64,000 nt of DNA, taken from UHGV virus genome UHGV-1493261; one strand, 5' to 3'. Position 1 is the first letter of the stretch, and each line of letters starts with the position of its first letter. The DNA is from a virus. A model generated the notes under the pieces. It saw only the letters and a list, made by a program, of their open reading frames with translations, was not told where the DNA came from and did no database searches. A program made the translations under genes and the position numbers. Below are positions 4,273-61,052 of this stretch, piece by piece.

Positions 4273-4941
4273 ATGCAAGAGATCACTCTCTCCGAACGTA
4301 CACTTCAGTTGCTGGCCAACTTTGAGACCATCAACCCATCTATCGTTCTGACACCGGGCAAGATGCTGCGCAGTATTAATGATTCTTCTACTGTGATCGC
4401 CGTGGCGCAGATCGAAGAAGACTTCCCGTTTGAGTTCCCGATTCTGGACCTGACCAAACTTCTGGCCATCCAGCGCCTACCTTCCTTCAAAGGTGCCAAA
4501 GCCGAATTTCATCAGGACTACATCCTGTTGAAAGGTGAAAGCTCTCAACTGCAGTTCTGGCGCTCCGCCAAAGAACTGACTGTGGTCCCGGCCGACACCA
4601 TCGAACTGCCTTCCGTCGACTTTGAAGCGATCATCACTCCAGAGAAGATGAAAGAACTGACCCGCGCCTGTTCTACCCTCGGACACAAGACTGTGCGCCT
4701 GGTTGCTCAGGGTGGCAAAACACGCCTGGTTGCAACCACCACTACCCTAGACAACTCCAACAACTACACTGTTGAGCTGGGCGAAACCGCACTGCCGGAC
4801 TTCGTAATGCCGCTGGATGTTGCCAACCTGAAAATGATCGAAGGCAACTACACTCTGCGTGCATGTGCTGATCTACAGATGGTGAACTTCCAATCATCCG
4901 ACGCGACGATCAATTACTTCGTCGGCGCACAGATTGAGTAA
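4273..4941 (+). CDS. gp45: sliding clamp (gp45-like)
   Basis: 222 aa, GAGGA RBS. N-terminus LSERTLQLLANFETINPSIVL parallels T4 gp45 LSKDTTALLKNFATINSGIML. Immediately followed by the clamp loader genes. Confidence 0.75.
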   Translation: MQEITLSERTLQLLANFETINPSIVLTPGKMLRSINDSSTVIAVAQIEEDFPFEFPILDLTKLLAIQRLPSFKGAKAEFHQDYILLKGESSQLQFWRSAKELTVVPADTIELPSVDFEAIITPEKMKELTRACSTLGHKTVRLVAQGGKTRLVATTTTLDNSNNYTVELGETALPDFVMPLDVANLKMIEGNYTLRACADLQMVNFQSSDATINYFVGAQIE

Positions 4942-20243: not shown

Positions 20244-21110
20244 ATGCTCCTGACCAAAACAATCGCTGCAGCGATTATCGAAAAGAATAAGGCTTTTGCC
20301 CCCAACGCAGCCAAAGTTATGTTGGTACACGAAGACGCTCGCGTGATCTTCGCCGAGAAGTTCGAGATGGGCGCGAAGTTCTGGTATGCCGACAACTTAC
20401 GTGAGAGCAAACTTCAGGGTATCATCCACAAACTGACTCTGGTCGCCAAGCGTAATGACCAGGGTGACTGGGTCGGCGTTTCTGACTTCAGTACGAAGAT
20501 CACCCCAAAGGCTCCACTTTCTCGTCAAGAGCGCATTCTGGAAGCCCAGGAAAAGCTGCGTGCGGCTCGGAGTACCCCAAAGGCGAAACCAGATGCAAGC
20601 CCTGTCATCAAGCCAGCGGTTGTTCCTAAGTCCAAATACCTCCCGCCCGTGAGTCAAAAGGCTGTGGAGCAATTGGTTGAGAAGCGCAAGGGTGACGTTG
20701 TGATGAAGTCTGACTCTTCAGTGGAGCCGTTCAAGCCGGATCCAGCAGAAGTACAGGCGCTGGCAGAAAAGGTAAAGAATTCACAATTCATTTCCCTGCG
20801 TGAACTTGAACCGCCTACTCGCCGTCGTATCGCCAACGAGCTGTTTGTGTCGTTCAGGTCGGATGGCAAGATCGTCCTGTGCAAAGCCCTGCGCGATGCA
20901 ATCCCTTGGACAACTCTGAACATGATGGTCACTCGCGACTTCAAGCGTTTTGGTATCATGCAAGGCAAGGACTACAACGTGAACCAGAGTGGGACTTATG
21001 TTAATCGCGCCATGTGTGACAAACTGACCTTCCCAGAAGATACTGGAACGATCCGTGTCGTTCTGAATTGGGACGACAAGCTGAACATGTATGTTGGCGA
21101 TTTCCAATAA
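20244..21110 (+). CDS. hypothetical protein
   Basis: Start at ATG 20244 (AAGGAA RBS) inside track ORF 20160. 288 aa, Pro/Lys-rich linker in the middle. Confidence 0.5.
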   Translation: MLLTKTIAAAIIEKNKAFAPNAAKVMLVHEDARVIFAEKFEMGAKFWYADNLRESKLQGIIHKLTLVAKRNDQGDWVGVSDFSTKITPKAPLSRQERILEAQEKLRAARSTPKAKPDASPVIKPAVVPKSKYLPPVSQKAVEQLVEKRKGDVVMKSDSSVEPFKPDPAEVQALAEKVKNSQFISLRELEPPTRRRIANELFVSFRSDGKIVLCKALRDAIPWTTLNMMVTRDFKRFGIMQGKDYNVNQSGTYVNRAMCDKLTFPEDTGTIRVVLNWDDKLNMYVGDFQ

Positions 21111-21121
21111 TCAATAACCTC

Positions 21122-21160
21122 GGGCGGCTTATCATAAAGCTGCCCTTTCATTTGAGTGAC
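21122..21160 (+). promoter_or_regulatory. GC hairpin / ATTTGAG cassette
   Basis: Hairpin GGGCGGCTTATCATAAAGCTGCCC (21122-21145) and TTCATTTGAGTG, then ACTATATCATG 21167. Confidence 0.4.
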
Positions 21161-21166
21161 TATATC

Positions 21167-21829
21167 ATGGAAAAACTTTATTCTATTATCGTCGGTCCTG
21201 ATCCTGACGGATTATTCTTCGCCCCGTTGTCTTATATTGCCCACGCCCGTATCGGCAGCCATTACGCATATTGCACACGTGGCCACGACGGTTCCAATAT
21301 CCTCCATTATAGCCGCCTGAACGATTTCCTGGCACTTCAACCAGAAGATGTTGTGCTGGCGCGTCGCGTGTTCATCGACTTCAACGCTATGCACAACAAC
21401 GAAATTGACGCTCGCTATCATGCCATGCGTTCTATGGAAGGGGGAGACTGCATTTATCGTATCGACCATTTTAGTGAGTTTACCCAATCTATTGATTGGT
21501 TCGTTTCAGAAAAGACGTTGGGTGAAAGAATCGTCACAACTCCGTGGGCACATGCGGAACAACTTCGTGTGTCTACCGATGCGTACAAAGAAGTCGACAA
21601 TCTGTGCAACAAGTTCCGCATCTCTGTGACCTGTAATCAAGACCCGGGCGAAGAGATACAATGGACAGCCGAGTCTCCTCATTTCAGTGGCCTGGTGATG
21701 ACGGCCGAAACCCGTTCCCGTGCTGTTGTCCAGTTAGTACTCTGGGCGTTCTACCAGCGCACCCCGTTCTCATACATGGGACAGAAAGAGATTGATGAAC
21801 TCCTGAAGTCTCACGCGGTGGAGGTGTGA
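21167..21829 (+). CDS. hypothetical protein
   Basis: Start at ATG 21167 with context GACTATATCATG, preceded by a GC hairpin and ATTTGAG element. 220 aa. Confidence 0.5.
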   Translation: MEKLYSIIVGPDPDGLFFAPLSYIAHARIGSHYAYCTRGHDGSNILHYSRLNDFLALQPEDVVLARRVFIDFNAMHNNEIDARYHAMRSMEGGDCIYRIDHFSEFTQSIDWFVSEKTLGERIVTTPWAHAEQLRVSTDAYKEVDNLCNKFRISVTCNQDPGEEIQWTAESPHFSGLVMTAETRSRAVVQLVLWAFYQRTPFSYMGQKEIDELLKSHAVEV

Positions 21830-21830
21830 T

Positions 21831-22268
21831 ATGGCTGGCGTATGGTGTGATGTCTTGCTGGTTCGTTACAGCGTAAATGGGAGCACGCAAGTGTGTTCTG
21901 CTTTCTATCCGGTCCCGTTCTCTTCCGGTGGCCTGACGGTTCAGCGAGTTCTTGATATTGAGGCAGATCTGAACACGAAGCCATATATCGGTGATACACA
22001 AGTGTTGGGATACGATCTTCTGAACGAAATGTTGATCGATGAAGATCGTGTAGAAACCATTGTTAGCCGTCAAGAAATGGAGGTCTTGATGAAACCGGAA
22101 GGCACCGAAAAGACTGAAGTTCAAACGATGTCTGTGCCTGTCGCGCCAACACAGGAACGCCTTGATGCCATTGCTGGATTATTCACGTATGGATTTTGTG
22201 ATGATCGCATGGCTCGTGGTATCTATGCCGCCGCACTGGGCGTTGAGAAACAAACGGAGCAAATATGA
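21831..22268 (+). CDS. hypothetical protein
   Basis: 145 aa, GGAGG RBS. Confidence 0.45.
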   Translation: MAGVWCDVLLVRYSVNGSTQVCSAFYPVPFSSGGLTVQRVLDIEADLNTKPYIGDTQVLGYDLLNEMLIDEDRVETIVSRQEMEVLMKPEGTEKTEVQTMSVPVAPTQERLDAIAGLFTYGFCDDRMARGIYAAALGVEKQTEQI

Positions 22269-22534
22269 GCACAAAGACTGTAATCGTGTGGGGAGTCGGT
22301 ATGGGGCGTTGTTGTCCTCACAAGACGATCACATTCACACAGGATGACCGTGTAGAAATCTCTCGCATCGAGACAGCCGAAGCACCTGTTGGGGATTCAA
22401 TGATCAGAACTCCGGTGTCCCGTGTGCAGGTATTGCGCCCAGTAGTTGAGGTCATTTGCGAAGATTGCGGACAGCGCGGCACCATGATGTTGGAAGAGAA
22501 TTCTGATGAAGAAATCGTGGTGAAAGGCTATTAA
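22265..22534 (+). CDS. small Cys-containing hypothetical protein
   Basis: 89 aa. ATGA overlap with the upstream gene. CC...CEDC pattern suggests a possible zinc ribbon. Confidence 0.4.
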   Translation: MSTKTVIVWGVGMGRCCPHKTITFTQDDRVEISRIETAEAPVGDSMIRTPVSRVQVLRPVVEVICEDCGQRGTMMLEENSDEEIVVKGY

Positions 22535-22624
22535 TTCCGCTTTATTCAATATGTTTTGTTAGTTAAACTGTAGTCCTCTTGTAGTGAACATGAAAGTAAA
22601 CATTAACCCAACGGAGAAATCCAG

Positions 22625-22903
22625 ATGAATCGTACTGAATTTGTTGCCCACATTGCTTCGACCCAGAATATCACCAAAGGCGAAGCGGAGAAAGTGGTGG
22701 CATCCTTTATCGACGGTGTTAAAACTGCAGTTGCTGCAGGCGCATCTGTACAGCTGGTCGGCTTCGGTGCGTTCGAAGTGAAACACCAAGAAGCGCGTGA
22801 AGGTCGCAACCCTCTGAACGGCCAGACCATTCAGATCGCGGCGAAAAACGTTGTGAAATTCAAAGTGGGCGAAGGTCTGAAGAACGCTGCCAACGGCAAG
22901 TAA
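22625..22903 (+). CDS. HU/IHF-family DNA-binding protein
   Basis: 92 aa. ITKGEAEKVV...VQLVGFGAFEVKHQEAREGRNPLNGQTIQIAAKNVVKFKVGEGLK closely parallels E. coli HU ([45 protein letters not shown]). Terminator at 22953-22985. Confidence 0.85.
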   Translation: MNRTEFVAHIASTQNITKGEAEKVVASFIDGVKTAVAAGASVQLVGFGAFEVKHQEAREGRNPLNGQTIQIAAKNVVKFKVGEGLKNAANGK

Positions 22904-22952
22904 TTCTATCTGACGCGCGGCCAGGCTCTGCAATCAGGGCATGGCAAAAGAG

Positions 22953-22985
22953 AAAGCCGGAGTACAATGCTCCGGCTTTTTCGTT
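22953..22985 (+). terminator. rho-independent terminator
   Basis: GCCGGAG / TACAATG / CTCCGGC then TTTTTCGTT, after the HU-like gene. Confidence 0.65.
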
Positions 22986-23031
22986 CTTGGGGATCGGGTA
23001 AACTATAGGCAAATCCCATAGGAGGAAGAAA

Positions 23032-24750
23032 GTGACAGCATTCAACCAATATACCAAGGCGCTTGACGGCGTCGGACCAGTCAGCATAGACCGCATCAAG
23101 TCTCTTGCCACTGAGTTCTTCCCGTATGACACCGCCAACCCCGGCCAGATGGAATGCATCGTTGAAGCCATTGATGCCCTTGTGAATAAGAAATTCAAAC
23201 ACGTGATCATCGAGGCTCCGACTGGTGTAGGTAAATCCCTCATCGGCACTACCATCCATAACGTGCTTCGCCATTTGGTTCTTGAGCACAACCCGTATGG
23301 TCAGTTCCGCACGTCTATCACGACGCCGACCAAAGGTTTACAGGATCAGTATGCAGCAGAGAAAGCCGTGGCGATAGACATCCTGAAGGGCAAGAAGAAC
23401 TACCGTTGCCACATCAGTCCCGACCTATACTACAACGCCATTCAGTGCCGTATGGCATGCCGTGATGGCCACTGTAGTAAGAATCGTTGCCCATATGTTC
23501 AGGCGCGTCGACAGTGGACCGACGTCTCCTCCTTGCGCTGCACCAACGCCGCCATGATGGTGGAGATGTGCACGACGATCTGTATGAAGCCGGAAAACCG
23601 CGCCGATATGCTGATCCTTGACGAGTGTCATAAGATGCCCTCTACGCTCCTAGAGCATACTATCATGGAATACAACACAAAGGCTGTGGAAGGGCTGCTT
23701 ACGATCCCCGAGGGAGTGCCTATCGTGGAGACCATCAAGGATATCATCATCCGCACAGAGAACTATGAATTGGGCAAGCTGTATTCCCTGTCTGGTGAGA
23801 TGCATGCGATATTTGATGAACTGCACGGCAAGGTTGAAGCCCTGTTGGAAACTCTTGAGGAACTGGTAGAGGACGAGCGCCTGACTGAAGCCCAGGTGAT
23901 GAAGCTGTCTGATATTATTGATACTCTTCACAACCTCAGCGACTACTGTGGTATCATGGGGCAGACCAACGCCAGCACTTTCATCGTACAGGAGAAGGAC
24001 AAGGGTATGATTCAGTTCAAGCCTGTCATCGCCTCTGATGTATCCCAGTTCGGTCTGTTCCGCAAGGGTGACTACCACGTCCACATGTCGGCGACCATTT
24101 GTGGGATTGACTCGTACGCCCGGTCACTGGGTATCCGTGAGGGTGAGTACCACAAGATACAGATCGGCAACCCTATCCCGATTGAGAACCGGAAAGTCAA
24201 CTACATGCCCATCATGAAGATGACGGCGAACATGGGTGACTACGAGATGAAGAAGCTGGCTGAATACGTGGATGAGATTATCGCGTTCCACCCTGGACAG
24301 TCTGGCATCATTCACACAGTCAGTTATGACCGCGCCCTGGCTCTACAGAAGTTCAGTAAGTACCGGAATATGATTCACGTTCCTCGTACTCGTAAGGCTC
24401 TGATGGACATCATGGAACACGCGTTCAGGACGAAGACGCCTTGTGTCATCGCCAGTCCGGCCATGGAAGAGGGGTATGACTTCAAAGGCGATTATAGTCG
24501 ATTTCAGATCTTGATCAAGGTGCCATACGATTACCTTGGTGATCCTCTGGTGGCCCACGTCAACAGTGTGGACCCATCGGCGTACTTCAGGATGGCGGTA
24601 CTGCGTATCGTTCAGATGTGTGGGCGTTCTGTCAGGGGCGTGAATGACTGGGCTGCGACATACATCCTTGATTCTTCTTTTGAATCACTGATGATGCGCA
24701 ACCCAGAGTTCTTCCCCGCTTGGTTCACTGATGCCGTGTTTGAGGTTTAG
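23032..24750 (+). CDS. DinG/XPD-like Fe-S helicase
   Basis: GTG start after AGGAGGAA. Walker A EAPTGVGKS, DECH box (LILDECH), four-Cys cluster (C...C...C...C) between motifs. Confidence 0.7.
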   Translation: MTAFNQYTKALDGVGPVSIDRIKSLATEFFPYDTANPGQMECIVEAIDALVNKKFKHVIIEAPTGVGKSLIGTTIHNVLRHLVLEHNPYGQFRTSITTPTKGLQDQYAAEKAVAIDILKGKKNYRCHISPDLYYNAIQCRMACRDGHCSKNRCPYVQARRQWTDVSSLRCTNAAMMVEMCTTICMKPENRADMLILDECHKMPSTLLEHTIMEYNTKAVEGLLTIPEGVPIVETIKDIIIRTENYELGKLYSLSGEMHAIFDELHGKVEALLETLEELVEDERLTEAQVMKLSDIIDTLHNLSDYCGIMGQTNASTFIVQEKDKGMIQFKPVIASDVSQFGLFRKGDYHVHMSATICGIDSYARSLGIREGEYHKIQIGNPIPIENRKVNYMPIMKMTANMGDYEMKKLAEYVDEIIAFHPGQSGIIHTVSYDRALALQKFSKYRNMIHVPRTRKALMDIMEHAFRTKTPCVIASPAMEEGYDFKGDYSRFQILIKVPYDYLGDPLVAHVNSVDPSAYFRMAVLRIVQMCGRSVRGVNDWAATYILDSSFESLMMRNPEFFPAWFTDAVFEV

Positions 24751-25514
24751 TAACCCGCAACGAAGGACAGATGGCACTTGACATTCGGTTCCAACGACGT
24801 CACAGAAACCGTCATATTGTCCGTATCTTGGCTGAAGTCAATGGTGGCGAGAGGTTTGGTCTGAATATGGTTATAGACACTGTAGATCAGATCCTCGCCA
24901 CGATACCCTACCTTCCCATCGGTGTCTTGCCAATGACCCAGTGTCTCATCGTAGACATGCACTCTGAACTCGATCATATGGAAGAGTGCCTTGGGGATGT
25001 CCTTGAGTACGCTGGTGCCAACCACGGGAATCTCTATACTGGAATCATTGGAGTTCCCTTCATAGACCGAAGCCCATGCAAAGGTAGGATCACCCCCAGC
25101 AACAGGGGTTCGCTTCCAGTATTGGAATTCTGGGTTGCCCGAAGCGTTCTTCTGAAGTAGAATGACCTCACCACCTTTGAAGTTCGAGGTATCGATGTCG
25201 CCTCGCTGAAGTTCATCTGCTGGAGATCCAATAAATTTCCAACCTTCGCGATCCAGTAAAGACTTATAATAGTCGGTGAACACGTTGCTGTCTTCTGCAT
25301 CGTTGATGGCATCTTTGAGACCTTGGCCTGTCACCATCTCGTTGAGCTTCAACCACATGTTCTTGACAGCAGACGCTGCTGCGACTTGTCCAGCAGTCCC
25401 ACCTGCAGCATAATCATAGATGATATCTTCTGACTTGATAGCATCATAGATAGAGAGGAGCAATTGCTCAATCTGCGGGGCGGTGAGACTGAAACGATAT
25501 GCGCGGGGTGCCAT
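24747..25514 (-). CDS. late-expressed virion structural protein (unassigned)
   Basis: Start at minus ATG 25514 (AGAGGA RBS) inside track ORF ending 25673. Exact TATAAATA late promoter 35 nt upstream on the - strand. 256 aa, Gly/Ser/Thr-rich. Confidence 0.55.
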   Translation of the reverse strand: MAPRAYRFSLTAPQIEQLLLSIYDAIKSEDIIYDYAAGGTAGQVAAASAVKNMWLKLNEMVTGQGLKDAINDAEDSNVFTDYYKSLLDREGWKFIGSPADELQRGDIDTSNFKGGEVILLQKNASGNPEFQYWKRTPVAGGDPTFAWASVYEGNSNDSSIEIPVVGTSVLKDIPKALFHMIEFRVHVYDETLGHWQDTDGKVGYRGEDLIYSVYNHIQTKPLATIDFSQDTDNMTVSVTSLEPNVKCHLSFVAGY

Positions 25515-39042: not shown

Positions 39043-39070
39043 AACTTTTTACTTCACATTACTTCCCTCC

Positions 39071-39095
39071 AGGCCTCGTCGAATGAGGCCTTTTA
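39071..39095 (+). terminator. rho-independent terminator
   Basis: AGGCCTC / GTCGAAT / GAGGCCT then TTTTAAAAT. Confidence 0.6.
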
Positions 39096-39133
39096 AAATA
39101 CTTCAAAAATATTTTAAAAAATTATTGAAAAGA

Positions 39134-39166
39134 CTTTACTATTCAATAATAGCGCACTATTATAAT
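39134..39166 (+). promoter_or_regulatory. sigma70/T4-early-like promoter (CTTTAC-N18-TATTATAAT) with A/T-rich UP region
   Basis: AAAATATTTTAAAAAATTATTGAAAAG then CTTTAC (39134-39139) and TATTATAAT (39158-39166), followed by GC hairpin 39175-39191. Confidence 0.5.
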
Positions 39167-39235
39167 TCACATAGGGCGGTAACACACCGCCGAATGAAAG
39201 TGAAACGCACCAACTACATTATGAGGAATTACATC

Positions 39236-39724
39236 ATGGCTACTACCAAAACTCTGATCACCAACGGCACCATCTCTTTCGAACTGAACACCGAAGTTGC
39301 TAAAGTTGAAATGTTCCGCATAGCTCAGGCAGCTGGCTTCACTGGTGGCAAAACTTCCTTCATGAACCTACTGAACGGTAAAGTGAAAGCGACTAACGGC
39401 TTCACCCTGGTAGAGCAGGTTGTGGTTGATAAAGCTGTGGTTGCTAAGACTGCCGACAAAGTTGGTATGCTGAAAAGCCTGGGCCACGACATCCGCATTG
39501 TCGAAGCAAACACCGAAACTTACGGCACCATCGTAGTCGGTAAAGGTCGCATCCAGCTGAACCCGCTGAACAACGGTTCCTTCTCTGTGATGGTCTTCCC
39601 TAAGAAGGGCTACGACAACACCGACATCGTGAAAGCTGCTGGTGGCGAAGCAAAAGCTCAGTACGTCAAAATGGGTAAACTGAGCGCCGACGCAGTTGAA
39701 GCTCTGGTGAGCAAACTGGCGTAA
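39236..39724 (+). CDS. hypothetical protein with strong expression signals
   Basis: Start at ATG 39236 with context GAGGAATTACATCATG. Upstream CTTTAC-N18-TATTAT promoter, A/T-rich UP region and GC hairpin. 162 aa, Ala/Gly/Val/Lys-rich. Confidence 0.55.
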   Translation: MATTKTLITNGTISFELNTEVAKVEMFRIAQAAGFTGGKTSFMNLLNGKVKATNGFTLVEQVVVDKAVVAKTADKVGMLKSLGHDIRIVEANTETYGTIVVGKGRIQLNPLNNGSFSVMVFPKKGYDNTDIVKAAGGEAKAQYVKMGKLSADAVEALVSKLA

Positions 39725-57314: not shown

Positions 57315-58154
57315 ATGTCATATATTCTTCATGTGGATTCTGGAACCAAAATTGAAATTGAAGGCAAAGACGTTGCGGCTATCCAGGCTGAAATCAAAGA
57401 AGCAGGTCTGATCATCGGAAACGTTACCCTGCGCCGTATGGTTGAAGGTGTTCTTCAGGCTGCCAACGGCTTCGAACTGATTGAAGGTCTGAGCGCCGAA
57501 GAGAAGGAAGAAACTCAGCAGGCTCTGGCGCAAGCCCAAGAGCAAGCCCAAGCTGAAGTATCCCTGAAAGTCGCTGAAACCGTTGATGCTGAAGCACCGA
57601 TCTCTGCCGATGCATGTGAAGCCCCAGTAGTGTCCGACGCCCCGGTAGACGCGGTTAAAGATGCAGTCAACGCGGCGCTGGAAGAAGGCAATCAGCCGTC
57701 CGACGCGAAAATCGGTTCCTTAGCGTCTTCTATGCTGAAAGAAGCATCGAAGGGTAAGACCCTGACCCCGCAGGCAGCGCTGGTAGAGCGTAAACGCCGT
57801 CACACCAAACGTGAGGAAATGGTTGACTTGGCTCGCGCTTCTAATCACGGTCCGGTCTTGGCGGCGATTGAAGCTGGTGTTGTCCCCGGTGTGTTCCTGA
57901 GCTATGTGAACCCAGACATGCGTTGGTTCCAGTTCCCGGTCACCGAACTGGCTAACCCTGAAAACCTTCACGCCCGCACCAATACGTATGTCGACGTTGC
58001 GCCTATCGTTTCCGGTGGCTGGGGCTTCAGTCTGTACGTGAACGGCAAGTCCTTCACCAAACGTCAGAAGATCAAAGAGTCTGATGCTGAGTCTCTGGTT
58101 AAGGCGATTAATGAATGGCTTCCACAGGCTCTGGCTGAAGCGAAAGCTGTGTAA
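57315..58154 (+). CDS. hypothetical protein with acidic Ala/Glu-rich linker
   Basis: 279 aa, AAAGGG RBS. Own GTTTAC-N16-TATATT promoter with A-rich upstream region at 57217-57244. Terminator at 58186-58217. Confidence 0.55.
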   Translation: MSYILHVDSGTKIEIEGKDVAAIQAEIKEAGLIIGNVTLRRMVEGVLQAANGFELIEGLSAEEKEETQQALAQAQEQAQAEVSLKVAETVDAEAPISADACEAPVVSDAPVDAVKDAVNAALEEGNQPSDAKIGSLASSMLKEASKGKTLTPQAALVERKRRHTKREEMVDLARASNHGPVLAAIEAGVVPGVFLSYVNPDMRWFQFPVTELANPENLHARTNTYVDVAPIVSGGWGFSLYVNGKSFTKRQKIKESDAESLVKAINEWLPQALAEAKAV

Positions 58155-58229: not shown

Positions 58230-58889
58230 ATGTCCTACTCCCTGAAGGGGCTGATGAAGCGCCCCGTCCACACATTCTTTAAACCACCCGTCGTAAAGGG
58301 GATCTACCCAGCACGAGGGCAAATCTACTACGTCAAAGGCTCCAATGGTAGCGGTAAATCCACTGTGCCGTCTCAGCTGGCGGAGAGGGATCCTCAGGCG
58401 TATGTCGTGACCCATAACGGCAAGGTAATGCTGACTGTCTGTCCTTCGTTCAACGTGGTCTGTATCGGTAAATATGACAAGTCGAAGTCCAAGGGGGTTG
58501 ATTCCCTGAAGGACACTGAGCAGATGTTGTTCGCGTTGTCTATTGCTGACCAACCAGAATACTTGAAATATGATGTGATTTTCGAAGGTATCATTCCATC
58601 CACATTATTGAGTTCTTGGATCCCCCGTCTGACACGCCCACCACGTGAATTGGTTGTGCTCTTTATGGACACTCCTCTTGAAACGTGTATCACCCGCGTT
58701 AAATCACGTAACGGCGGTGTGGACTTCAATGAAAGTCTGGTGGTCGAGAAGTGGGAGAGAGTTCATGACCATCGTCAACGACATAAAGACTTGTTCCCTA
58801 CGGTGGCTGCGGGTATGATGAAGTCTCACGGCCTAACAGTAGACCAGGCTGTGATGGCATTCCTCTGTCGTGATTTTGGGAGTATCTGA
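58230..58889 (+). CDS. P-loop NTPase / putative kinase
   Basis: Walker A GSNGSGKST; hydrophobic strand then EG (VIFEG). Immediately upstream of and overlapping the TS-fold gene. Confidence 0.55.
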   Translation: MSYSLKGLMKRPVHTFFKPPVVKGIYPARGQIYYVKGSNGSGKSTVPSQLAERDPQAYVVTHNGKVMLTVCPSFNVVCIGKYDKSKSKGVDSLKDTEQMLFALSIADQPEYLKYDVIFEGIIPSTLLSSWIPRLTRPPRELVVLFMDTPLETCITRVKSRNGGVDFNESLVVEKWERVHDHRQRHKDLFPTVAAGMMKSHGLTVDQAVMAFLCRDFGSI

Positions 58890-59935
58890 TGGAAATCAAA
58901 GCAATAAACAACAATGACATGCTGAAACAGGCTGTCTTGGCTATCCGTGAATTCGGGATCGAATCTGATCCTGGTAATGCTGAAATCAATACTGATAGCA
59001 CCCGCTTCCTTGATGGCGTGACCATAACCGTCGCCGACATCCGTGACCGCTGGCTATCCGTTGAAGGTCGTAACTCATCGGCTATCGCCGCCATCGGCGA
59101 GACCTTCTGGGTTCTGTCCGGGCGCGATGACGTTCGCTTCCTGTCCCGCGTGTTGCCCCGCGCCGCCAACTTTTCCGACAACGGCCACACATGGCGAGCT
59201 GCTTATGGTCCGCGTCTGTACGCTCATGGTCAGCTGGATAGCGTTATCAACCGCCTGCGCAAGAATCCAAACACTCGCCAGGCGTACCTCACCATCTATG
59301 ATCCGGCTCTGGATTCAGATGCTGGTCTGGCGAAGTTCAGTGAGAGTGGCGAAGCAAAGACCAAGGACATGGTGTGTAACCTGGCTCTGTTGTTCGCCAT
59401 CGTTGAAGGTCGCCTGAACCTGACGGTTATCAATCGCTCACAGGATGTTCTGTGGGGTATGAGTTCAATCAACTTCATTGAGTTCTCTATTCTTCAGGAA
59501 GTGATTGCTCGGGTGTTGGATGTTGACGTCGGCCAGTACAAGCTCTTCTCCAACAATCTTCATTACTACAACAATGAAGTCAGCCAGAAGCAGCTGGGCA
59601 AGATCACGAAGGACACCAAAGTAGAAGCTGGGTTCATCAACTCCATGATCCACTTCACGAACGTGACCAACCAGAACCATATCCGCGATCTGTTCACTGG
59701 CGTGCTTGTTCATTGTGACTTCGGTAGCCCTTGGGAAACTGTTGTTGCCTTCCTGAAGGAGTATGATGCGGATCGCGGTCTGATTGTGCAGATGGCATAC
59801 TGCCTGCACTGCAAATTGAATAACAAGCTCATTAACCTGGACCTGATTCAGGATCATGGATTGAACACCGCGCTCACCCATTCTCCGGTTGACCGCAAGA
59901 TCGTTGATCCTAAGTTCCTGGAAGGTGTAGTATGA
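58889..59935 (+). CDS. thymidylate synthase-fold enzyme (TS or pyrimidine hydroxymethylase)
   Basis: NPNTRQAYLTIYDP (TS NPxSRR..xxxWNP-like) and MVCNLALLFAIVEGRLNLTVINRSQDVLWGMSSINFIEFSILQEVIA paralleling TS PPCHALCQFYV...[25 protein letters not shown]. 348 aa, longer than ThyA or T4 gp42. Confidence 0.75.
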   Translation: MEIKAINNNDMLKQAVLAIREFGIESDPGNAEINTDSTRFLDGVTITVADIRDRWLSVEGRNSSAIAAIGETFWVLSGRDDVRFLSRVLPRAANFSDNGHTWRAAYGPRLYAHGQLDSVINRLRKNPNTRQAYLTIYDPALDSDAGLAKFSESGEAKTKDMVCNLALLFAIVEGRLNLTVINRSQDVLWGMSSINFIEFSILQEVIARVLDVDVGQYKLFSNNLHYYNNEVSQKQLGKITKDTKVEAGFINSMIHFTNVTNQNHIRDLFTGVLVHCDFGSPWETVVAFLKEYDADRGLIVQMAYCLHCKLNNKLINLDLIQDHGLNTALTHSPVDRKIVDPKFLEGVV

Positions 59936-60501
59936 TGTACCCAAATCTTGAATTCTTTACGGGGCGCAAGCGTTCCGGTAAGGACTTCTGTTTGGAGTCC
60001 CTCATCAGATATCACCAACTACAGGGTGATATGGACATCCAGCGCCTTTCGTTCTCAGATGAACTGCGCCGGGTTGCCAACTTCATCTATCCATGGCTGC
60101 CAGCGGAGGTAGAGGATGCCGTGAAGGACGTTCCTTACGACCACCCTGATAACCCCAAGGGCTTAACCCCACGGCAGATCTGGCTTCATCTAGGCAGCGA
60201 TACGGGCTTACGTTACGTACAACCCGATCTGTTCCTGGCGTTCTTCAAGCGCTTCCAGCTTCCTCTGGTAGAGCAGAACCCCCACGTCCATTATATCGTG
60301 AGCGATCTGCGTACCCCTCAGGAATATGAATGGGCGCTGAGTACGAAATGTCCTATCACCCGTATTTCAAAGGCCGATCGTGCTGGTATCATAGAGGACG
60401 ATATAGAGGCTTTCATTGACCAAATGAAAGTGGACTACGAATTCCTCAATCCATTTGATGGTTGGGAACCGTTCGTTAAATTCTACGGAGAACGTAAATG
60501 A
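59932..60501 (+). CDS. deoxynucleoside monophosphate kinase (gp1-like)
   Basis: N-terminal FFTGRKRSGKDF matches T4 gp1 FLSGVKRSGKDT. 189 aa. ATGA overlap with the upstream gene. Confidence 0.6.
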   Translation: MMYPNLEFFTGRKRSGKDFCLESLIRYHQLQGDMDIQRLSFSDELRRVANFIYPWLPAEVEDAVKDVPYDHPDNPKGLTPRQIWLHLGSDTGLRYVQPDLFLAFFKRFQLPLVEQNPHVHYIVSDLRTPQEYEWALSTKCPITRISKADRAGIIEDDIEAFIDQMKVDYEFLNPFDGWEPFVKFYGERK

Positions 60502-61052
60502 TCACAGCAGGGCATATCAAAAGCCTGCTCGAACTCCAAAAGGCCACTAACGTGGCCTACTTTGGGGAAGAGTGGAAGAATGTATGGAGTCAGAACGCAG
60601 TTATCAACTCCATCTATCGTGAGTGGGCAGAGTTCCTTGATGAAACCACCCGTGACTGGAAGGTCTATGGCAACGACATCGGGTTTGACCATACGAACGC
60701 AGTTTATGAACTGGTGGACGTGGTACACTTCATGTTGTGCTTCATCCTTGTGGACCGCACCAAAGGTGAGATCGAAGAAGAATTTGAAGTCCTGAGTAAT
60801 CGCGAATTCACCCCATCTGCTTTGGGTGTTGTAGGGCATCGCAATGTTACGTACCGCCTTGGGCAATTCATGAACGATCCTTGCGTTGAGACTCTCATGT
60901 TCTTCCTGTCGTCTGCGTGTTCTTATATGGAGATCGACATTGAGACTTACATACTGGCGCACAAACGCAAGAACGATCGCAATCGTCTGCGTGCTTCTGG
61001 TGGTGCGGATTACGACAAGTCCGCAGAAACCCCTCTGACCCTGGAGTTCTAA
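60498..61052 (+). CDS. dCTPase/dUTPase-like all-alpha NTP pyrophosphatase (gp56-like)
   Basis: YELVDVVHFMLCF matches T4 gp56 FELVDIFHFVLNMF. EWAEFLDE acidic helix typical of MazG-like enzymes. Confidence 0.5.
   Translation: MITAGHIKSLLELQKATNVAYFGEEWKNVWSQNAVINSIYREWAEFLDETTRDWKVYGNDIGFDHTNAVYELVDVVHFMLCFILVDRTKGEIEEEFEVLSNREFTPSALGVVGHRNVTYRLGQFMNDPCVETLMFFLSSACSYMEIDIETYILAHKRKNDRNRLRASGGADYDKSAETPLTLEF

Follow-up and report, generated by a model that had tools for sequence, protein, structure and literature searches.

The DNA analysed here, a stretch of 64,000 nt from the virus genome UHGV-1493261 (the window, meaning the whole stretch), carries a gene for a small DNA-binding protein of the HU family, hereafter HU. 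The HU region is 97-98% identical to that of the Escherichia phages vB_EcoM-ZQ1, A221 and AV101 and of the Enterobacter phage fGh-Ecl02, and ZQ1 is classified in the Ackermannviridae, subfamily Aglimvirinae. The window is therefore from an Aglimvirinae/Agtrevirus-type, ViI-like phage of the Ackermannviridae, and the T4-like frame in which the original prediction had placed it was wrong. Since T4 core genes are common to ViI-like phages, the comparison with T4 is readily explained.

The translation of the HU open reading frame (ORF) is MNRTEFVAHIASTQNITKGEAEKVVASFIDGVKTAVAAGASVQLVGFGAFEVKHQEAREGRNPLNGQTIQIAAKNVVKFKVGEGLKNAANGK. It matches the Pfam family Bac_DNA_binding over the full profile, at positions 1-90 of 90 (E=6.1e-30, 103.8 bits for a cut-off of 22.4), as well as PHROG 379, 'DNA binding protein' (E=4e-36). 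Sequence matches in the PDB include B. anthracis HU (8e-20), E. coli HU-alpha (1e-15) and SPO1 TF1 (4e-11). The AlphaFold2 model, computed with 63 homologues (mean pLDDT 95.7), has the HU topology, with helices at residues 3-14, 18-37 and 83-89 and strands at 42-44, 48-55, 58-61, 68-71 and 74-81. Foldseek superimposed this model on HU, IHF and HBsu structures, HU-DNA and IHF-DNA structures included, with TM scores of 0.85-0.90 and a probability of 1.00. Sequence matches and fold agree with the earlier description of the protein as an unmistakable HU/IHF homolog, and we consider it practically certain that it is a DNA bender of the HU family. No second HU was detected in the window by a six-frame profile scan, which retrieved the gene itself at 6e-41 and its next best match at E ~1.

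In HU-alpha numbering, the protein keeps G46, F47, G48, F50, R58, G60, R61, N62 and the intercalating P63, and all these residues, GFG46-48 included, are invariant or nearly so among the 63 homologues. The peptide GFGAFEVKHQEAREGRNPLNGQTIQIAAK, quoted in the original prediction, corresponds to residues 46-74. The proline-intercalation mechanism of the HU/IHF family and the role of the proline have been described (PMC2475624), and the conservation of these residues suggests that the window protein would bind and bend DNA as a dimer. Alignment against TF1 and bacterial HU and IHF, proposed earlier as a check, was carried out with a TF1 query 100% identical to SPO1 tf1; the arm residues R58, R61, N62 and P63 are those of a canonical HU. 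Relative to E. coli HU, three substitutions are found throughout the Ackermannviridae, namely R55 to Q, Q64 to L and K83 to E. The net charge of +4 and the pI of 9.7 are the values of E. coli HU, and a charge adaptation in the form of fewer basic residues for aminated DNA was rejected on this ground. As a side observation, the top Foldseek match of the model is an integrative model of the B. subtilis ACP-HBsu complex (9a4h_B), and an acyl carrier protein (ACP) gene is annotated ~4.3 kb upstream of HU in phage Marshall (L001 126-452); the concurrence of the two is probably a coincidence.

A tblastn search retrieved HU from 538 of 50,697 phage records, ~270 of which belong to Ackermannviridae, with at least 60% identity and one copy per genome. 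Identity to the window protein is 100% in ZQ1, PC3 and the Kuttervirus Marshall, 96.7% in Limestonevirus, 84.8% in CBA120 and most Kutterviruses, 74-75% in Taipeivirus, 51% in Miltonvirus, 47% in Nezavisimistyvirus and 37% in the Acinetobacter member SH-Ab 15599. The helicase gene lies directly downstream of HU in all six Ackermannviridae genera compared, and is followed by genes for RNase H, a gp55-like late sigma factor and gp46/47-like nucleases. On the upstream side lie small genes with superinfection-exclusion, lipoprotein or spanin annotations, and HU is outside any structural block. HU is thus a core gene of the Ackermannviridae; indeed, the published core-gene list for Vi01-like phages includes a 'putative DNA binding protein' adjacent to the helicase (PMC10892097, Table 5). 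The same table contains a second core protein, a 'putative histone like protein' encoded near rIIB and topoisomerase, which is not an HU by tblastn, each genome having a single HU place. Annotations of the gene, either as 'DNA-binding protein HU' or as 'transcription factor 1', already exist for hundreds of Ackermannviridae genomes and the family is well known, so that the novelty of its presence is low.

HU is under purifying selection, with dN/dS ratios of 0.10-0.14; between genera, dS is at least 1 and thus saturated. In a database of 5.8 billion proteins, the phage clade (at least 72% identity) is separated by a gap from the next sequences, HUs of Flavobacteriia with 50-53% identity. Flavobacteriia HUs have exactly the arm and C-terminal strand TIQIAAKNVVKFK of the window protein, though the phage infects Enterobacteriaceae. 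Identity to E. coli HU-alpha and HU-beta is 40% and 41%, respectively. Together with the saturated dS between genera, these values rule out a recent host-derived copy, an origin that the original prediction had considered and for which even the nearest cellular sequence, at 53%, is too distant. A compositionally foreign gene is likewise ruled out, since the GC content of HU is normal (0.513 versus 0.493 +/- 0.028 for the window ORFs, the window as a whole having 49.3% GC, even from gene to gene) and its frequency of E. coli-optimal codons (Fop) is 0.78, the first of 70 ORFs (mean 0.56, sd 0.08). Marshall and Maynard, both Kutterviruses, carry an Aglimvirinae-type segment with 98.7% nucleotide identity over 70% of window positions 21000-25000 and an HU protein 100% identical to that of the window, in contrast to the 84.8% of other Kutterviruses, and this sharing points to recombination between genera.

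The HU locus was aligned for eight phages of six genera: Agtrevirus-type, Limestonevirus, Kuttervirus (two phages), Taipeivirus (two phages), Nezavisimistyvirus and Miltonvirus. Upstream of the gene, a block with the consensus GCTTTATTCAATA ... TTGTTAGkTAArCTGTArTCCTCTTGTAGTGAAC is shared by all eight and probably constitutes a gene-specific promoter or regulatory region. Its best sigma-70-like reading would be TTTATT-17 nt-TAAACT, with weak hexamers. Further copies of the upstream elements GTWAARCTRTAR and GCTTTATTCAATA are no more frequent in the window than expected by chance, so that HU is not assignable to a temporal class by shared promoters. Early promoters were likewise not identifiable in Ackermannviridae by the authors of the CBA120 study (PMC3184105). 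Downstream of the gene, the terminator hairpin AAAGCCGGAG/CTCCGGCTTT at 22953-22979 is followed by a T-rich tail. A terminator is annotated at the same locus in Marshall, and the stem shows compensatory changes between genera (AAAGCCGGAG, GAAGCCGAGG, GAAGCCGGGG and AAACCCCGC), in line with the earlier claim that the gene has its own terminator. The scan called the terminator on the minus strand, and it can function in either direction. Its 7-nt loop is inverted between the window (TACAATG, 22963-22969) and Marshall (CATTGTA, L001 ~4762-4770), whereas the stems are identical, which amounts to a flip of the hairpin loop. The hairpin preceding the terminator is kept in the eight phages by structure and not by sequence. 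No credible Rfam match to a structured RNA was found in the leader or the 3' untranslated region (UTR). Since HU has its own conserved upstream block, a good Shine-Dalgarno sequence and a strong terminator, in agreement with the ribosome-binding site and terminator annotated at the equivalent positions of Marshall, it is predicted to be monocistronic and to form its own transcription unit.

The leader of HU had been described as distinctive on account of the motif ATGAAAGTAAAC, which resembles ATGAAAGTGAAAC at 39194-39206 in the leader of the gene starting at 39236. The motif is present and the two leaders do resemble each other as sequences, but the resemblance is not statistically convincing: the degenerate motif, with at most one mismatch, has 4 matches in place of 0.88 expected, and one of 100 shuffles reached 4. 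In the eight-phage alignment, the HU-leader motif is kept only in Aglimvirinae and in the mosaic phage Marshall; its ATG is absent in CBA120 (Kuttervirus) and in T765 and IME250 (Taipeivirus), where the loose GTAAAC alone persists. An upstream ORF or a shared regulatory element was thus rejected as an explanation of the motif, which is not significant, is unconserved in the HU leader outside Aglimvirinae and is a weak lead. In the 39236 leader, the motif is invariant over three genera, as is nearly the whole leader. The gene behind this leader (39236-39724) encodes 162 residues, matches PHROG 3764, has no Pfam domain and, with a Fop of 0.745, ranks second of the 70 ORFs; its product is probably very highly expressed. 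Its leader (region 39060-39724) is near-invariant across Agtrevirus-type, Kuttervirus and Taipeivirus phages and contains, besides GAATGAAAGTGAAAC and a GGGCGGT..CCGCC hairpin, a sequence that reads well as a sigma-70-like promoter (TTTACT-17-TATTAT). Both leaders also contain a second element, CTTTAyT..TTCAATA. Since HU and 39236 are the two genes with the highest codon optimisation and have this element in common, a shared expression signal is possible.

Table 1. Features of the HU locus and of the nucleotide module, in window coordinates
Feature	Positions	Strand	Evidence
Conserved upstream block GCTTTATTCAATA ... TTGTTAGTTAAACTGTAGTCCTCTTGTAGTGAAC	22539-22589	+	Eight-phage alignment, long invariant runs
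Leader motif ATGAAAGTAAAC of the original prediction	22590-22601	+	Present in the sequence
Shine-Dalgarno sequence GGAG, 8 nt before ATG	22613-22616	+	Sequence; GGAG kept in seven of eight aligned leaders
Gene for HU-family (DNABII) DNA-binding protein, 92 aa	22625-22903	+	PF00216, AlphaFold2 model, Foldseek, conserved residues
First 3'-UTR hairpin, between stop codon and terminator	22920-22945	+	Predicted at the equivalent place in eight of eight phages
Intrinsic terminator	22950-22988	+	Stem 22953-22962/22970-22979, loop 22963-22969, T-rich tail
DinG/XPD-type helicase gene, 572 aa	23032-24750	+	Pfam Helicase_C_2, ResIII, DEAD; PHROG 2488
5-hmdU DNA kinase, orthologous to ViI gp67	58230-58889	+	PF18748, E=1.6e-108
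Thymidylate-synthase-family enzyme, presumed dUMP hydroxymethylase	58889-59935	+	PF00303, E=1.5e-15
dNMP-kinase-like ORF	59932-60501	+	Weak Pfam match
dUTPase_2-family NTP pyrophosphatase	60498-61052	+	Clear Pfam match

The original prediction had connected HU with modified pyrimidines through a nucleotide module at 58.2-61.1 kb. This module indeed exists and consists of the four ORFs of Table 1, from a 5-hydroxymethyl-deoxyuridine (5-hmdU) DNA kinase to an NTP pyrophosphatase. Matching gene orders are annotated in Vibrio phage K452 and in PhiW-14 and have been described for CBA120 (PMC3184105). Between the kinase and its Vi01 counterpart, identity is 87.7%. The thymidylate-synthase-family ORF is presumed from orthology to be a hydroxymethylase rather than a thymidylate synthase, its CBA120 orthologue being grouped with the dUMP hydroxymethylases of SPO1, PhiW-14 and YuA (PMC3184105). 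In ViI, gp67, the 5-hmdU DNA kinase activity of which has been verified biochemically, leads together with gp247 (serine:DNA transferase, aGPT-Pplase2) and gp226 (PLP decarboxylase) to 5-(2-aminoethoxy)methyl-dU, or 5-NeOmdU (PMC8989533). In the phage of the window, the genes for the transferase and the decarboxylase are probably located beyond the 64 kb analysed. This base replaces ~40% of the thymidines in ViI, CBA120 and CBA6 and has also been shown in 1.255.O (PMC5889632); according to a review, the modification genes are conserved across the Ackermannviridae (PMC11721090). Because the window encodes an orthologue of the verified kinase next to a dUMP hydroxymethylase, its DNA very probably has modified pyrimidines through thymidine hypermodification, so that this part of the original prediction holds by orthology. 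Directly upstream of the kinase gene, a 279-residue ORF (57315-58154; PHROG 3905, without Pfam match) has the third-highest codon optimisation and is a candidate for a further component of the module.

What could such a phage do with an HU of its own? We lean towards a canonical HU that serves as the phage's own architectural protein, a reading to which we give somewhat better than even chances. Infected cells would contain the protein at a high level, as a homodimer that binds the minor groove, kinks DNA via its two prolines and serves, on replicating phage DNA, as a nucleoid-associated protein encoded by the phage itself. There it could assist replication or recombination intermediates, the transcription of late genes, or the condensation of DNA that precedes packaging, at a stage when phage DNA far outgrows the supply of host HU. 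Substituents at position 5 of pyrimidines project into the major groove, and the HU arms bind the minor groove. The HU fold would thus be intrinsically compatible with 5-NeOmdU DNA through groove geometry, and a special adaptation would be needless.

Several points weigh against this reading. Host HU is already abundant, and a generic role leaves the benefit of a phage copy unexplained. The high abundance of the phage protein is probable from codon usage alone. The sigma-70 scan calls no promoter upstream of HU, the hexamers of the best candidate being weak. R55Q and K83E, arm or body substitutions that each replace a basic residue of E. coli HU, could reflect an altered DNA preference. Finally, our literature search found no transcriptome or infected-cell proteome of ViI-like phages and no paper linking HU or TF1 to these phages.

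The site of action of the protein separates the architectural role from two other explanations. HU could be a DNA-condensing protein packaged in the virion and injected with the genome, comparable to internal or histone-like proteins known from some viruses, as might be imagined for a small, basic (pI 9.7) and probably abundant DNA binder, and packaging of the HU-like protein pA104R is described for African swine fever virus (ASFV) (PMC12945001). On the other hand, HU is not among the ~60 proteins detected by LC-MS/MS in CsCl-purified Sajous1 virions, whereas several other DNA-associated proteins were detected in them (PMC10892097, Table 6), and its gene is not in a structural module. We therefore hold a virion function to be highly improbable, and rate it as reasonably likely that the protein stays out of the virion, is abundant inside the cell and acts on phage DNA. 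The position of the gene, downstream of small superinfection-exclusion, lipoprotein and spanin genes and away from the structural block, is also what could be expected of a host-directed takeover factor, which would be aimed chiefly at the nucleoid or the HU of the host, e.g. by displacement of host HU or its capture in non-functional heterodimers, so that the host chromosome is remodelled or inactivated soon after infection begins. That phages target host HU is known from SPO1 Gp46, described as an HU inhibitor (PMC8892312). Such a factor is nevertheless quite improbable here, as arm and dimer interface have the residues of an ordinary, functional HU, no dominant-negative design is seen in the sequence, the fixed neighbours are replication and recombination genes, and 40% identity to E. 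coli HU makes heterodimers uncertain.

The most serious competitor of a canonical architectural HU is a protein dedicated to modified phage DNA, i.e. a functional analogue of SPO1 TF1 with a preference for 5-hmdU or 5-NeOmdU DNA. By sensing the flexibility or charge of this DNA, it could discriminate phage from host DNA, control transcription classes or shape the phage chromosome. We regard this as doubtful, even though the joint occurrence of HU and the 5-hydroxymethyluracil (hmU) pathway lends it some weight. In enterobacterial Ackermannviridae, HU and the kinase occur nearly 1:1, with 168 and 161 records, respectively, for Salmonella, 44 and 45 for Klebsiella, 19 and 19 for Dickeya, and 10 and 10 for Serratia phages. 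SH-Ab 15599, the DNA of which contains alpha-dapT (PMC13458397), also has HU. The ViI-like Vibrio phage K452 encodes a very divergent HU (L013 42145-42420, minus strand; profile E=2e-12, and 1e-25 once added to the profile), the arm of which is without the R-N-P motif (ERAYPIPNKPGEF) and the gene of which adjoins a sigma-factor gene and not a helicase gene. Since tblastn had missed this homologue at E <1e-5, it was dropped as the sole test of HU presence or absence, and the key negatives were obtained by whole-genome profile scans, with positive controls at E 1e-25 and 6e-41.

A second series of co-occurrences comes from Firmicute myoviruses, 37 records of which have an SPO1-type dUMP hydroxymethylase with at least 49% identity (SPO1-likes, CP-51/JL/Shanette, S4-1, C30-1, Exiguobacterium and Lysinibacillus phages, Nachito, YungSlug, SP-10 and Goe26). 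Among the matches listed, every such record has a TF1-type HU 2.1-2.7 kb downstream of the hydroxymethylase, and other Herelleviridae are absent from the HU matches listed. This linkage spans genera infecting Bacillus, Exiguobacterium and Lysinibacillus, and in SP-10, CP-51 and SPO1 the TF1-type HU is directly upstream of the DNA polymerase. Furthermore, TF1 is reported to prefer hmU DNA and to be essential (Grove 1996; Sayre & Geiduschek 1988, as cited in PMC3969353 and PMC10531801), and R55Q, K83E and L64 occupy DNA-facing positions throughout the family, E83 being present in TF1 and CP-51 as well. The preference of TF1 has been tied to DNA flexure and not to direct base contacts (Grove et al. 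1996, as cited in PMC3969353), so that a canonical HU could in principle show a similar preference.

The distribution of HU beyond these phages argues in the opposite direction. Whole-genome profile scans found no HU in Delftia phage PhiW-14 (best E 0.67) and in the M6-like Pseudomonas phage WP2 (best E 0.1), both of which have the kinase and the hydroxymethylase; the DNA of PhiW-14 contains alpha-putrescinylthymine. In addition, 54 kinase-positive Pseudomonas records are not among the tblastn HU matches. Conversely, about half of the HU-positive phage records belong to kinase-less groups, such as Ralstonia (94 records), SPbeta-like Bacillus, Burkholderia and Flavobacterium phages. HU is thus neither necessary for hypermodified-thymidine DNA nor restricted to such DNA. 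Counting SH-Ab 15599, SP-10, CP-51 and SPO1 as separate lineages was rejected, because taxonomy gives only two families. The link between HU and the hmU pathway, striking as it is, consequently rests on two phage groups and is suggestive; these are the only phylogenetically independent ones, and their HU genes may share an origin. Moreover, the net charge and pI of the window protein are the same as those of E. coli HU, and TF1-clade features are missing from it at positions 61 and 59, in the GFG motif and at the C-terminus.

If the phage simply has its own HU, the finding is ordinary, except that HU probably ranks among the non-structural genes with the highest expression in Ackermannviridae, phages in wide use for biocontrol and diagnostics, the targets of which are Salmonella, E. 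coli O157, Klebsiella and Dickeya. These phages are also the best-characterised system of post-replicative thymidine hypermodification. A preference of HU for 5-NeOmdU DNA, if true, would provide a second, independent example after TF1 of an architectural protein that reads a base modification via the minor groove and DNA mechanics, as well as a tool for selective binding of hypermodified DNA. One could go further and suppose that hmU-based DNA in large virulent myoviruses is repeatedly accompanied by an HU-type protein because its function is required there, the ViI-like and the SPO1-like phages alike retaining such a gene universally and at high expression, and the Ackermannviridae HU being a second, structurally distinct 'TF1' with a preference for modified DNA. 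This we consider unlikely. If it were true, 5-substituted uracils would alter the flexibility and charge of DNA to the point of requiring a phage-tuned minor-groove bender, which could organise, replicate or transcribe hmU DNA, mark it as self, or gate the post-replicative modification enzymes; such gating would help to explain why ~40% of the sites become 5-NeOmdU.

Compared with bacterial HU, as represented by E. coli HupA/HupB, B. subtilis HBsu and Anabaena HU, the window protein has about the same length (~90 residues), the same fold (TM 0.85-0.88), the residues GFG46-48, F50, R58, G60, R61, N62 and P63, a similar charge (+4) and pI, and a single gene, which implies a homodimer as in most bacterial HUs. 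It differs from them by an identity of 40-45% to E. coli and Bacillus HU and of 53% to the nearest cellular relative in Flavobacteriia, by R55Q, K83E and Q64L, and by being encoded in a core gene of virulent phages. With E. coli IHF (IhfA/IhfB), it has in common the fold, with a TM score of up to 0.90 (1ihf_A), and the R-x-G-R-N-P arm motif. However, its identity to IHF is 28-30%, as against 40-45% to HU, and IHF is encoded by an alpha/beta pair instead of one gene.

The TF1 clade (SPO1 TF1, CP-51 gp103 and SP-10 BS_SP10_190) offers a parallel in biology, with a DNABII protein encoded by a monocistronic gene within the replication gene block of a large virulent hmU-DNA myovirus. TF1 is HU-like and yet has preferred sites. 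It is 38% identical to the window protein, which, like TF1 and CP-51, has E83. TF1-clade proteins have F or Y at position 61 and K59, whereas the window protein has R61 and E59; they have GFL, GFW or GLM in place of the intact GFG; and they reach 99-106 residues with a C-terminal tail of 9-14 residues, whereas the 92-residue window protein ends 2 residues past the HU-alpha end. The neighbourhood is also different, since TF1-clade HU lies between the dUMP hydroxymethylase and DNA polymerase genes, and the window HU upstream of the DinG-like helicase gene and ~35 kb from the hydroxymethylase gene. In a neighbour-joining tree (91 columns), the enterobacterial Ackermannviridae form a clade with 99% bootstrap and the TF1 group one with 97%, the window protein being outside the latter. 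The deep nodes are unsupported, so that independent capture and common origin of the two groups of HU are not separated. Collectively, residues, length, tree and synteny characterise the window protein as a probable canonical HU and not a TF1 orthologue. Of the analogy with TF1 drawn originally, what stands is an HU-family protein in an hmU-DNA myovirus; membership in the TF1 clade, and any resemblance to TF1 beyond the family, do not. Other phage and virus HUs, such as SPbeta YonN, those of Ralstonia, Burkholderia and Flavobacterium phages and ASFV pA104R, are likewise DNABII proteins of mobile elements, but they come mostly from temperate phages without an hmdU pathway, have 30-40% identity to the window protein and in no case show the helicase synteny that accompanies HU in the Ackermannviridae.

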